NCBI RefSeq assembly: GCF_003018255.1
Contig: NZ_CP027440.1
DNA length: 64,000 bases
From: Escherichia coli
GTDB lineage: Bacteria; Pseudomonadota; Gammaproteobacteria; Enterobacterales; Enterobacteriaceae
Direction: 5' to 3' (one strand)
Both the position numbers and the translations under genes were made by a program. Below the pieces are notes generated by a model. That model saw only the letters and a list, made by a program, of their open reading frames with translations. It had not been told where the DNA came from and did no database searches. This document shows positions 19,556 through 21,422 of the stretch, in pieces (position 1 is the stretch's first letter; every line of letters starts with the position of its first letter).

Positions 19556-19597
19556 TATTCTTCACTCCGAAGAAATAGGTAATTTAATCTAAATAAT

Positions 19598-19620
19598 GCC
19601 CGTCAAGGATTTGACGGGCA
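19598..19620 (+). terminator. hairpin downstream of yaiT
   Basis: gcccgtcaa-ggat-ttgacgggc perfect 9-bp stem starting 43 bp after the yaiT stop; no strong U-run, so termination efficiency is uncertain. Confidence 0.5.
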
Positions 19621-19640
19621 TTACTGCAAAGGACGCACAA

Positions 19641-20264
19641 ATGTTATCTGTAGTTAAACCTCTTCAGGAATTTGGTAAGCTCGATAAATGTTTGTCCAGA
19701 TACGGTACGCGCTTCGAGTTTAATAATGAAAAGCAAGTTATATTTTCCAGTGATGTCAATAGCGAAGATACTTTCGTTATTTTAGAGGGCGTTATCTCTC
19801 TGCGTAGAGAAGAAAACGTACTTATCGGTATTACCCAGGCTCCTTATATTATGGGGCTGGCTGATGGTTTAATGAAAAACGATATACCATACAAATTAAT
19901 ATCAGAAGGAAGCTGTGCGGGATATCATTTACCAGCCAAACAAACCATTACTCTTATTGAACAAAATCAACTCTGGCGAGACGCTTTTTACTGGTTAGCC
20001 TGGCAAAATAGAATTCTGGAATTACGCGACGTTCAGCTCATTGGGCATAATTCCTACGAACAAATCCGCGCGACGTTATTATCAATGATTGACTGGAATG
20101 AAGAATTGCGATCACGTATTGGTGTGATGAATTATATCCATCAACGTACACGTATATCGCGTTCTGTCGTTGCGGAAGTTCTCGCTGCTTTGCGTAAAGG
20201 CGGCTATATCGAAATGAATAAAGGCAAACTGGTCGCTATCAACCGTTTGCCTTCAGAGTATTAA
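19641..20264 (+). CDS. yaiV: Crp/Fnr-family-like transcriptional regulator
   Basis: Preferred start ATG 19641 (aggacg SD; upstream ATG 19596 lies inside the hairpin); C-terminal helix-turn-helix RTRISRSVVAEVLAALRKGGYI. Confidence 0.75.
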   Translation: MLSVVKPLQEFGKLDKCLSRYGTRFEFNNEKQVIFSSDVNSEDTFVILEGVISLRREENVLIGITQAPYIMGLADGLMKNDIPYKLISEGSCAGYHLPAKQTITLIEQNQLWRDAFYWLAWQNRILELRDVQLIGHNSYEQIRATLLSMIDWNEELRSRIGVMNYIHQRTRISRSVVAEVLAALRKGGYIEMNKGKLVAINRLPSEY

Positions 20265-21422
20265 TCAGGATGCGGGGATAACCAACGGTTTATTCCCGCT
20301 TAGCTCGGTCACCAGGTCATTGATGCCATCGCTCATATTTTTGAAGCGCGTCAATGGCGAACGAGTGACCACCACAAATGCGCCAATGTTCTTCTGCGGG
20401 ATCATCGCCATATAGGTAATGAAACCGCCACCACCACCTGTCTTCTGAATAATCCCTGGACGACCCTCTTTCGGGGCCATATATACCCAGCCTAAACCAA
20501 GCGCATCCGCTTTGCCGGGGACATCCATGCCAATCACTTTTGTAAACTGCGCGCGCTGATAAATCAACGTCTGCATGCGATCAGCCTGGTTACTGCGCTG
20601 ATAAAAATCAGATGACAAATACTGCTGCATCCAGCGCATCATATCGCCTGGCGTGGAATAGACGCCGCCGCTGCCAATTGCCGCCAGCGTGTTATTGCAC
20701 GGACTGGCACCGCGCTCAGCAACCATTAAACGGCGGCACTGATCCGGTGAGGGGGTGTAGGTGGTGTCTTTCATCCCCAACGGACGGGTAATCTGCTCTT
20801 CAAACAGCTGGGTATAAGGCTTGCCGGACGCATTCGCCAGTGCATCTGCCAGCAGATCGAATGCGAGGTTGGAGTACGCCGCCTGACTGCCTGGCGCGGC
20901 TTTCAGCTTCGCCGTAGAAAGGTATTTCCAGCGTTGCTCGCGCGTTGGCCAGACAAATACCGGACGATGTGCCGCGCCACCGGGCTGTTCACGGGGCAGG
21001 GCGCTGGTATGGGTTGCCAGATTCACCAGCGTAATGGGCGTCCCATTGTAGGTCGGTACACGTGCGCCTGGTGGAGCATATTTACTTAGCGGATCGTTTA
21101 ACTTCACGGTCCCCTGGTCGAGCAATTTCACCAGCATCTCACTGGTCATTAACTTGGTGAGGGAAGCAATACGTATGACGGAATCCAGCTGCGGGCGAAC
21201 GTTATTACCAGGTCGCGTTTCGCCATAACTGCGAAAGACGCGCTGGTTACCGTCGATAACAACCAGCGCCATCCCCGTGGCACCGCTGCCGTAAAAAATA
21301 TGATCGGCATAACGATCGACAATATCAGAGGCAAACTCCGGTTCAGTGATCGGCTGCGCCGCATGGACGGAGGTCAATGACGCCGCACACAGCACGGCAG
21401 AAAAAAGCAGACTACGTTTCAA
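20265..21422 (-). CDS. ampH: penicillin-binding protein AmpH (class C beta-lactamase fold DD-peptidase)
   Basis: 385 aa; TTG start at 21420-21422 read from the DNA; signal peptide; S-x-x-K motif (ASLTK); recognised as AmpH. Confidence 0.93.
   Translation of the reverse strand: MKRSLLFSAVLCAASLTSVHAAQPITEPEFASDIVDRYADHIFYGSGATGMALVVIDGNQRVFRSYGETRPGNNVRPQLDSVIRIASLTKLMTSEMLVKLLDQGTVKLNDPLSKYAPPGARVPTYNGTPITLVNLATHTSALPREQPGGAAHRPVFVWPTREQRWKYLSTAKLKAAPGSQAAYSNLAFDLLADALANASGKPYTQLFEEQITRPLGMKDTTYTPSPDQCRRLMVAERGASPCNNTLAAIGSGGVYSTPGDMMRWMQQYLSSDFYQRSNQADRMQTLIYQRAQFTKVIGMDVPGKADALGLGWVYMAPKEGRPGIIQKTGGGGGFITYMAMIPQKNIGAFVVVTRSPLTRFKNMSDGINDLVTELSGNKPLVIPAS

Follow-up and report, generated by a model that had tools for sequence, protein, structure and literature searches.

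What does the small gene between the adhesin gene ehaB and the peptidase gene ampH of Escherichia coli encode, where does it begin, and how are transcripts handled at an end where two convergent genes abut? The gene is iprA (yaiV), and it was examined in a 64,000-nucleotide stretch of E. coli DNA (NCBI RefSeq assembly GCF_003018255.1, contig NZ_CP027440.1), called the window here, whose positions are used throughout. The reading to which a probability of about 0.7 is given is that iprA is translated from the ATG at 19641, encodes a protein of CRP-type fold, carries two conserved hairpins and an antisense 3' overlap, and acts in trans as an adhesin-linked regulator. The gene, its corrected start and the Crp-like nature of its product are already known, and for that reason the sequence-only reading of the locus that preceded this analysis is ordinary as written; worth following up are the two hairpins, both supported by covariation, and the adhesin neighbourhood of the protein family. 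The two hairpins, the ampH-strand structure embedded in iprA and the family-wide adhesin neighbourhood are unmentioned in the literature searched, which did not cover the primary paper of Herman et al. 2016, reportedly the study behind IprA/YaiV.

19641-20264, plus strand: iprA (yaiV) coding sequence, 207 residues plus TAA (RefSeq annotation from the Prokaryotic Genome Annotation Pipeline, PGAP; NCBIfam NF008810; Pfam HTH_46; AlphaFold model; Foldseek)

The locus is the known gene iprA. The PGAP annotation was read from a RefSeq record that is 100% identical to the window region, and 5,356 of 5,426 complete E. coli genomes match the region at 97-99% identity. The current name of yaiV is iprA, 'hydrogen peroxide resistance inhibitor', and that of yaiT is ehaB. 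The NCBIfam equivalog model for IprA, NF008810, is matched at 454.5 bits (cutoff 359), with the full model, 1-207, aligned.

The only Pfam family found in IprA is HTH_46 (PF15977), a winged helix-turn-helix (HTH) domain that is matched over its full 68-position model at residues 153-220 of the long, 222-residue open reading frame (ORF), with 106.7 bits and E = 6.1e-31 (gathering threshold 29.3). The C-terminal Crp/Fnr-type HTH proposed from sequence alone is thereby confirmed, and the likeness extends over the full predicted length. An AlphaFold 2 model built from 24 homologues, with a predicted local distance difference test (pLDDT) score of 82.4, consists of an eight-strand beta-roll (residues 23-98), a long helix (112-133), the HTH (162-186) and a wing (190-200). 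The top 50 Foldseek matches to this model in the PDB are all full-length proteins of the CRP family (CRP, Vfr, CLP, GlxR, NtcA and similar), with E values of 9e-9 to 1e-7, template modelling (TM) scores of about 0.5 and 14-19% identity. Given this model and these full-length matches, IprA is predicted to be CRP-like over its whole architecture and not in the HTH alone. The Ishihama catalogue likewise lists YaiV in the Crp family (PMC4797297).

Three results count against this assignment. The Pfam cNMP_binding family scores 14.1 bits on IprA, below its gathering threshold of 27.5; no CRP relative turns up when PDB sequences are searched with a profile; and hhalign gives a probability of 1.5% for the match to E. 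coli CRP. Sequence methods alone therefore do not put IprA in the CRP family. In that low-confidence alignment, R82 and S83 of CRP fall on a gap and G71 and E72 on Met and Gly, so that no cyclic-nucleotide pocket is recognisable at these four positions, and CRP R180 is matched by the first Arg of SRS in the recognition helix. No cysteine cluster of the FNR type (C20, C23, C29, C122) is present, the only cysteines of E. coli IprA being C16 and C92. The best matches of the PDB profile search, to the phycobilisome linker CpcN (E = 1.8e-5 summed; IprA residues 97-143, window about 19929-20069), consist of weak repeats, each insignificant; they are probably compositional, and the relation was judged spurious.

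Why iprA lies where it does can be approached from its neighbours.

16607-19555, plus strand: ehaB (yaiT), an intact 982-residue autotransporter adhesin gene, upstream neighbour (PGAP; Pfam Autotransporter beta-domain, 1.2e-46)
20265-21422, minus strand: ampH, encoding a D-alanyl-D-alanine carboxypeptidase/endopeptidase of 385 residues, convergent with iprA (PGAP; Pfam Beta-lactamase, 9.6e-68)

The RefSeq gene order in the window is hemB(-), ehaB(+), iprA(+), ampH(-), sbmA(+), yaiW(+), and the window shares the order hemB-ehaB-iprA-ampH-sbmA with most of 80 species loci. An IS3 element interrupts ehaB in a K-12-like record (L002), and ehaB is intact in this window. From the physical linkage to the autotransporter gene, the sequence-only reading had suggested that YaiV is a local regulator. 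The strongest rival explanation, doubtful yet far from negligible, is that IprA is a purely global regulator and that its place beside ehaB is inherited synteny without functional meaning. In its favour, iprA is kept where ehaB has been lost or degraded, in Kluyvera (loci L040-42), Salmonella (L024 and L063), Pluralibacter (L077) and the IS3-disrupted K-12; iprA outlasts the loss of ehaB in at least six lineages and so does not depend on it. The published phenotypes, moreover, are hydrogen peroxide resistance and effects on distant fimbrial operons. Deletion of iprA raises oxidative-stress resistance, according to a passage in a later paper that cites Herman 2016 (PMC11952850), and an iprA mutant of S. 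Typhimurium has altered expression of fim, stb, stc, std and stf, with fim and other fimbrial operons lowered (PMC6527747).

Two observations argue that the neighbourhood does carry meaning. The first comes from Citrobacter farmeri CP081314.1, where a second pair of genes, EhaB-like (76% identity) and IprA-like (59%), occupies an unrelated site (L087 4030-7624) between an ABC transporter gene and a LacI-type gene. The spacer of this paralogous pair holds a hairpin, ATTGCCCGTCAA-GAAT-TTGACGGGCAAT followed by TTTTG, that is the same as the hairpin found 5' of iprA. Thus ehaB, hairpin and iprA move as one module.

The second concerns distant relatives of IprA. A profile search of 1.84 billion cluster representatives returned 645 IprA-like proteins, 467 of them at E <= 1e-10; among the matches listed, most are near full-length, at about 200-250 residues. 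Ten relatives that were looked up are nameless, and all score below the IprA cutoff. Twelve relatives were chosen blind to context for inspection of their surroundings, and one proved to be the orthologous locus, leaving 11. Seven of the 11 have a chaperone-usher fimbrial operon no more than about 4 kb away and two adjoin an autotransporter gene, which brings the adhesin loci to nine; another adjoins a gene for a FimB/FimE-type DNA invertase (NF007370, 255 bits, cutoff 221), and the last, on a 4.6-kb contig, has neither an adhesin nor an invertase neighbour. By a rough estimate, the share of random enterobacterial genes with a neighbour of this kind is well below 10%. The idea of a local regulator thus gains comparative support from the neighbourhoods and the fimbrial phenotypes, in the modified form of a regulator associated with adhesin loci. 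IprA may control ehaB directly. Weighing the other way, besides the survival of iprA without ehaB, is the size of the sample, since the adhesin linkage comes from these 11 loci only, mostly on short metagenomic contigs.

Two of the distant loci have features of their own. One metagenomic contig (L091) bears two HTH_46 IprA-like genes 5 kb apart, at 628-1299 and 6170-6844, the second directly upstream of a FimA/PapD operon. In L085/L086, a 184-residue tyrosine DNA invertase of the FimB/FimE type (5382-5936) is divergent from the IprA-like gene and is followed by GlgS-like, CSS-motif and GerE genes.

The 3' end of iprA raises the question of how two abutting convergent genes end their transcripts.

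20262-20267, junction of both strands: stop-stop junction, iprA TAA (20262-64) abutting ampH TGA (reverse complement TCA, 20265-67), read from the sequence
20219-20255, minus strand: embedded hairpin in iprA codons 194-205, candidate ampH 3' hairpin (intrinsic terminator or 3'-end stabiliser), from fold and covariation
20208-20218, minus strand: U-rich tail after the embedded hairpin, UUCAUUUCGAU, or UUAUUCAUUUCG when read from the last core pair

The abutting stop codons reported earlier are present as described, and in 68 of 83 loci the distance between the two stops lies between -4 nt (a shared TTAA) and +5 nt. The sequence-only reading had concluded that there is no room for terminators and that the transcripts must overlap for that reason. 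The lack of intergenic room holds; the lack of a terminator does not, as a terminator-like hairpin of the ampH strand is embedded in iprA. An antisense overlap is thus implied because this hairpin sits in iprA codons, not because terminators are absent. A spacer between the genes is found in Salmonella (43-44 nt) and Buttiauxella (33-39 nt), the only two genera with a visible intergenic hairpin, which with its T-run on the ampH strand is an ordinary terminator. Where there is no spacer, a transcript leaving ampH meets its first hairpin within iprA. The spacers are at 5625-5668 in L024, 5526-5568 in L063, 5616-5648 in L081 and 5616-5654 in L082; the hairpin in the L082 spacer is bidirectional, and other genera have lost the spacer.

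On the minus strand, 20255-20219 forms a stem of 16 bp, interrupted by one bulge and closed by a 4-nt loop, with a folding energy of -20.9 kcal/mol (z = -5.8); its core begins 11 nt past the ampH stop. In the stem, codons K194-G195-K196-L197 face R202-L203-P204-S205; the amino acids fix six of the nine pairs, and the other three join two third-codon positions. Among 77 gap-free sequences, the K194/P204 wobble pair is A-U in 41, G-C in 32 and something else in 4; the K196/R202 pair is A-U in 54, G-C in 19 and something else in 4; and the G195/L203 pair is C-G in 74, U-A in 2 and U-G in 1. By mutual information, K194/P204 and K196/R202 rank 1 and 4 of 1,770 column pairs, and on a neighbour-joining tree of ampH about 5, 3 and 1 same-branch changes are seen at the three pairs (about 9 in total), compared with 0-3 for control wobble columns. 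Drift in third-position G+C content (GC3) was considered as a source of this synonymous covariation and was ruled out by the ranks of the partners and by same-branch changes far commoner than in the control columns.

It is unlikely, though it has several points in its favour, that the embedded hairpin instead serves the iprA mRNA, for example by affecting its stability or its translation near the stop, or is a by-product of the KGKL...RLP peptide. The hairpin forms on the plus strand too (-14.8 kcal/mol, z = -3.1; 96.4% of cells paired), and conserved amino acids force those six pairs. It also persists in Salmonella, where ampH has its own canonical intergenic terminator, and in the Enterobacter clade the minus-strand tail (CGGCUCAUAUUG) is not rich in U. 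Against it, the three free wobble-wobble pairs covary, and in ten homologues that are not convergent with ampH only 1-6 of the nine pairs form, even though several of the ten carry the same G(K/R)L...LP motif. A role on the plus strand fits poorly with the departures from Watson-Crick pairing, which are A.C in 19 cells and G.U in 2 and can therefore pair as wobbles in the minus-strand RNA but not in the plus-strand RNA. The minus strand allows the complete set of eight core pairs in 74 of the 77 sequences, the plus strand in 58, and the minus-strand fold is 6 kcal/mol more stable. A terminator on the plus strand that ended 9 nt before the stop codon would, in addition, be expected to give a non-stop mRNA.

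The embedded hairpin is thus probably the 3' hairpin of the ampH transcript, in which case the antisense overlap would be at least about 45-55 nt. The tail UUAUUCAUUUCG of E. coli has 7 U in its first 10 positions, and tails with 5-8 U of 10 occur in Escherichia, Citrobacter, Kluyvera and others; a terminator scan called the inner stem only, with tail AGTTTGCCTT. Several facts tell against this assignment. Because the Enterobacter tail is not U-rich, the terminator reading is not universal; given the intergenic terminator in Salmonella, the role of the hairpin there would be redundant or different; and the strand asymmetry is partly shaped by codon constraints. To these is added the published record: the Term-seq supplements of Adams 2021 hold no 3' end for ampH, yaiV or yaiT, and no published 5' or 3' end, N-terminus or binding site for the locus was found in the literature and supplements searched. 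The TERMITe supplements have no entry for the locus.

A candidate iprA terminator inside ampH (20272-20299) was rejected as a family-wide element, with z = -1.8 / -1.2 and a distribution limited to Escherichia and some Citrobacter; neither significant nor conserved, it leaves iprA with no convincing terminator of its own. Supplementary file 2 of Adams 2021 lists a Rho-termination region inside ampH on the minus strand, at U00096.3 395316(-) (score 2.48, p = 5e-5), which is about window 20451, so that Rho may also limit that strand. Another Rho-termination region is listed there antisense to yaiT, at 391117.

A second hairpin lies between ehaB and iprA.

19594-19623, plus strand: conserved leader or intergenic RNA hairpin, perfect 13-bp stem, GGAT loop, terminator-like, from fold and covariation

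Its 5' arm, TAATGCCCGTCAA (19594-19606), and its 3' arm, TTGACGGGCATTA (19611-19623), are 100% complementary over 13 bp, and the plus-strand RNA folds at -20.4 kcal/mol (z = -6.3 against shuffles). The sequence-only reading had described a perfect 9-bp hairpin following yaiT; the stem is indeed perfect and its position correct, but it is 13 bp long and is linked to iprA, since Kluyvera (L041, L042) and Salmonella (L024) retain it without having ehaB. In an alignment of the 60 nt upstream of the start in 44 loci from about a dozen genera, 10 of 12 stem pairs have compensatory changes on both sides and 94.7% of cells are paired, a share that falls to 30-45% once the partners are slid by 1-3 columns; none of 500 shuffles attains these values. 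The 5' arm is GCCCGTCA in Escherichia, TCCCGCCA in Phytobacter and Kosakonia, GCCCACCA in Yokenella, GCTCGTCA in the Enterobacteriaceae isolate L047 and GCCTATCTC in Buttiauxella, and every one of these variants has a complementary 3' arm. Among wobble departures, G.U (15) outnumbers A.C (4), which fits an RNA of the plus strand. The loop varies from 3 to 6 nt or more across loci.

Of 5,385 E. coli records, 5,370 carry the hairpin once, with at least 99% identity, and no feature is annotated there; with one copy per genome, a dispersed repeat of the repetitive extragenic palindromic (REP) kind is ruled out. A search of Rfam with the hairpin gave chance-level matches only, with E above 1. A separate hairpin right after the ehaB stop, followed by the 5' hairpin, is found in Kluyvera, Trabulsiella, Phytobacter, Pseudocitrobacter and others.

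Outside Escherichia the 5' hairpin is usually followed by a T-run (5-8 T of 9), and such a U-tract is found in Kluyvera, Phytobacter, Kosakonia, Yokenella, Pseudocitrobacter, Buttiauxella and the C. farmeri paralogue. In most genera 16-22 nt separate the end of the stem from the iprA ATG, and in Buttiauxella at least 33 nt do. With 16-22 nt that also hold the Shine-Dalgarno sequence, there is no room for a promoter between hairpin and gene in most genera, and iprA would therefore be transcribed through the hairpin or from its 5' edge. Most likely, the hairpin is an intrinsic terminator or attenuator that would insulate and gate iprA. Three points weigh against that role: the E. coli tail, UUACUGCAA, has 3 U of 9 and no U-tract; a consensus terminator scan of the E. 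coli window does not call the hairpin; and the hairpin is missing altogether from the Enterobacter/Lelliottia/Leclercia clade. In E. coli the hairpin may instead be a 5'-terminal stem. The curated 3'-end tables searched contain no entry for yaiT or yaiV.

The minus strand of 19594-19623 is slightly more stable, at -22.4 kcal/mol, and is followed by the U-rich tail UUAUUUAGAUU in Escherichia, Citrobacter and Salmonella. The hairpin could also stop antisense transcription that crosses iprA from ampH.

What has been reported on the regulation of iprA bears on a further alternative.

19561-19589, plus strand: predicted promoter hexamers TTCACT (19561-66) and TTTAAT (19583-88), overlapping a CyuR motif (19569-19589); literature predictions only

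A constitutive promoter, TTCACT-18-TTTAAT, was predicted in the yaiU>yaiV spacer, with H-NS, by Shimada 2014 (PMC3946193). The spacer between the hexamers is 16 nt in this strain and 18 nt in K-12. The difference stems from a 2-nt deletion at window 19577-19579 (GAAATAGGTAA here, GAAATACTGGTAA in K-12 and most E. coli), which also changes the predicted CyuR motif. If used, the predicted promoter would have transcription begin at about 19595, where the hairpin has its 5' edge. A consensus promoter scan finds nothing convincing between ehaB and iprA, and Cappable-seq supplements contain no transcription start site near the expected iprA coordinates. A CyuR motif is predicted at -75 of yaiV, and cysteine induces the gene by 4.5 log2 (PMC11408624); the -75 position fits the start of the 207-residue form. 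The gene is associated with H-NS, and FNR binding appears once H-NS and StpA are removed (PMC3946193, PMC3688515). The G+C content is about 41-42% in iprA, about 30% in the region upstream of ehaB and 50-58% in hemB and ampH. Low G+C at window 16200-16600 and 19400-20200 fits the reported H-NS association.

Proteins of CRP type bind palindromes as dimers, and the 5' inverted repeat might in that light be a DNA operator for a dimeric factor (IprA, FNR or CyuR) and not an RNA structure. The predicted fold of IprA, the FNR binding at yaiV in the hns/stpA background (PMC3688515), the CyuR motif predicted just upstream and the place of the repeat between the predicted promoter and the start codon would all suit an operator. 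The explanation is nevertheless improbable, because the half-sites change together in a way that keeps complementarity (those 10 of 12 pairs), the 15 G.T cells break the symmetry of the DNA and yet keep the RNA paired, and the loop varies in length; a contiguous GC-rich stem followed by a T-run is, besides, the anatomy of a terminator.

The start codon of iprA is tied to the same hairpin.

19596-19598, plus strand: legacy start codon of the 222-residue annotation, not the real start, within the 5' arm of the hairpin
19628-19633, plus strand: Shine-Dalgarno sequence AAAGGA for the 19641 start, with a 7-nt spacer, read from the sequence

The sequence-only reading had placed the upstream ATG inside the hairpin and preferred the ATG at 19641, which is preceded by a Shine-Dalgarno sequence. 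Both statements are correct, although RefSeq/PGAP already starts iprA at 19641 (207 residues) and the upstream ATG is the annotated 5' end only in legacy GenBank records (K-12 MG1655, EDL933 and others); both forms circulate in databases. The Shine-Dalgarno duplex of ATG 19641 with the 3' end of 16S rRNA is worth -5.3 kcal/mol and its start codon is unpaired with probability 0.49; for ATG 19596 that probability is 0.011, and there is no Shine-Dalgarno sequence at a usable distance. A purine-rich stretch (GGA, GGG or GAGG) 6-10 nt before the ATG is also conserved in other genera. The NCBIfam model for IprA, of 207 positions, covers residues 16-222 of the long ORF, and nearly all full-length homologues have 206-208 residues. 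Of 78 species-level loci whose consensus start is an ATG, 53 have the upstream frame closed by a stop before any in-frame ATG, GTG or TTG; 19 have an upstream in-frame ATG, mostly the hairpin's own at -45 or -48. The few longer proteins in databases have in common only 'MPV...TGI', the translated stem arms, and the remainder of the 15-residue extension is unconserved. From these comparisons of sequence, ATG 19641 is taken as the true start and ATG 19596 as no start codon. That the 222-residue ORF is real, with initiation at ATG 19596 on a leaderless or hairpin-melted message and a hairpin incidental to coding, is very improbable: the ORF is open from 19596 and annotated in legacy GenBank, the hairpin ATG is in frame in Escherichia, a few Citrobacter, Intestinirhabdus and Trabulsiella, and a transcript from the predicted -10 (19583-88), if used, could begin at about 19595, at the AUG, yet the frame is closed in most species, the stem arms alone are conserved through compensatory changes that do not preserve the protein, the AUG is buried without a Shine-Dalgarno sequence, and the family model and nearly all homologues have the shorter length.

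A mechanism can be proposed from these parts. The 5' hairpin would end most transcripts that arrive from upstream and so gate transcription into iprA; in E. coli, where its U-tract is degenerate, it would form the extreme 5' end of the iprA mRNA if TTCACT-N16-TTTAAT fires. The ampH mRNA would run at least about 45-55 nt antisense into iprA, as far as its embedded 3' hairpin, and iprA transcripts would probably run antisense into ampH until Rho stops them. IprA would act in trans, as one of a family of HTH_46 proteins characteristically encoded beside adhesin loci. A bolder proposal, offered tentatively and rather unlikely to hold in full, is that the HTH_46 proteins are an unrecognised class of CRP fold dedicated to adhesin loci (autotransporters, chaperone-usher fimbriae and fim-type switches), that in the ehaB-iprA module the conserved terminator-like hairpin ties the synthesis of IprA to read-through from the adhesin gene, and that the ampH transcript is ended by the hairpin in iprA codons. 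If true, expression of an adhesin would be reported in trans to other surface and stress programmes, such as fimbriae and RpoS/catalase.

The locus is of wider interest as well. In iprA, synonymous sites 30 nt apart covary across Enterobacteriaceae, a clean case in nature of an RNA structure, one that probably works for the convergent neighbour, limiting how a coding sequence can vary. This bears on how 'silent' variation is interpreted and on how terminators are annotated where genes abut. The conserved hairpin directly ahead of the iprA start is a likely place of control over the gene, and for a protein whose name is based on phenotype only, the adhesin neighbourhood offers the concrete hypothesis of an adhesin-linked regulator.

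Three records in the comparison call for comment. L075 (CACSKA010000001.1), titled 'Chryseobacterium sp. 18061', has a typical Enterobacteriaceae hemB-ehaB-iprA-ampH-sbmA locus, near-identical to that of Citrobacter sp. 18056, and is likely a mislabelled or contaminated assembly. In L063 (Salmonella enterica subsp. arizonae), iprA aligns at residues 34-207 only, ehaB is absent and the invariant P204 is replaced by Leu; this iprA is possibly a pseudogene. A 4.9-kb metagenome contig from ENA (P0072) encodes a 259-residue chimera in which residues 1-126 of IprA are joined in frame to the C-terminus of AmpH (about residues 253-385), probably a misassembly, because the chimera would need an inversion.

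How does the locus compare with known systems? As a protein, it is no different from the IprA of Herman et al. 2016: it is the same 207-residue protein, in the same synteny and with an equivalog-level match. It resembles the CRP/FNR regulators, in predicted structure only, by its long central helix (the dimerisation helix of CRP), its C-terminal winged HTH and, in the model and its Foldseek alignments though not by sequence, a beta-roll, and differs from them in its 14-19% identity, its sub-threshold cNMP_binding score and the gap opposite R82/S83; the four-cysteine cluster of FNR is absent, and the HTH of IprA belongs to the separate Pfam family HTH_46. PapX, MrpJ and FocX are regulators at the edge of adhesin operons that act in trans. 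In the same way iprA flanks an adhesin gene, has published effects on other fimbrial operons, in S. Typhimurium, and belongs to a family with an adhesin neighbourhood, although PapX and MrpJ are small HTH proteins of other families and are not homologous to IprA. Like intrinsic terminators, the 5' hairpin has a GC-rich stem, a short loop and, in most genera, a U-run, and it departs from them in E. coli, where a proper U-tract is missing. Convergent genes may share or overlap their terminators, an example of which is reportedly provided by SEnd-seq (Ju et al. 2019). The iprA-ampH pair would have the overlapping 3' ends of such arrangements, and its embedded hairpin has the GC-rich stem, the short loop and, in E. 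coli, the U-rich tail; the pair differs in that the ampH-strand hairpin lies wholly inside the coding sequence of its partner and is kept there by synonymous covariation. 'Excludon'-like pairs have a long antisense overlap, whereas here, judging from the position of the hairpin, the overlap would be a minimal one of about 45-55 nt.

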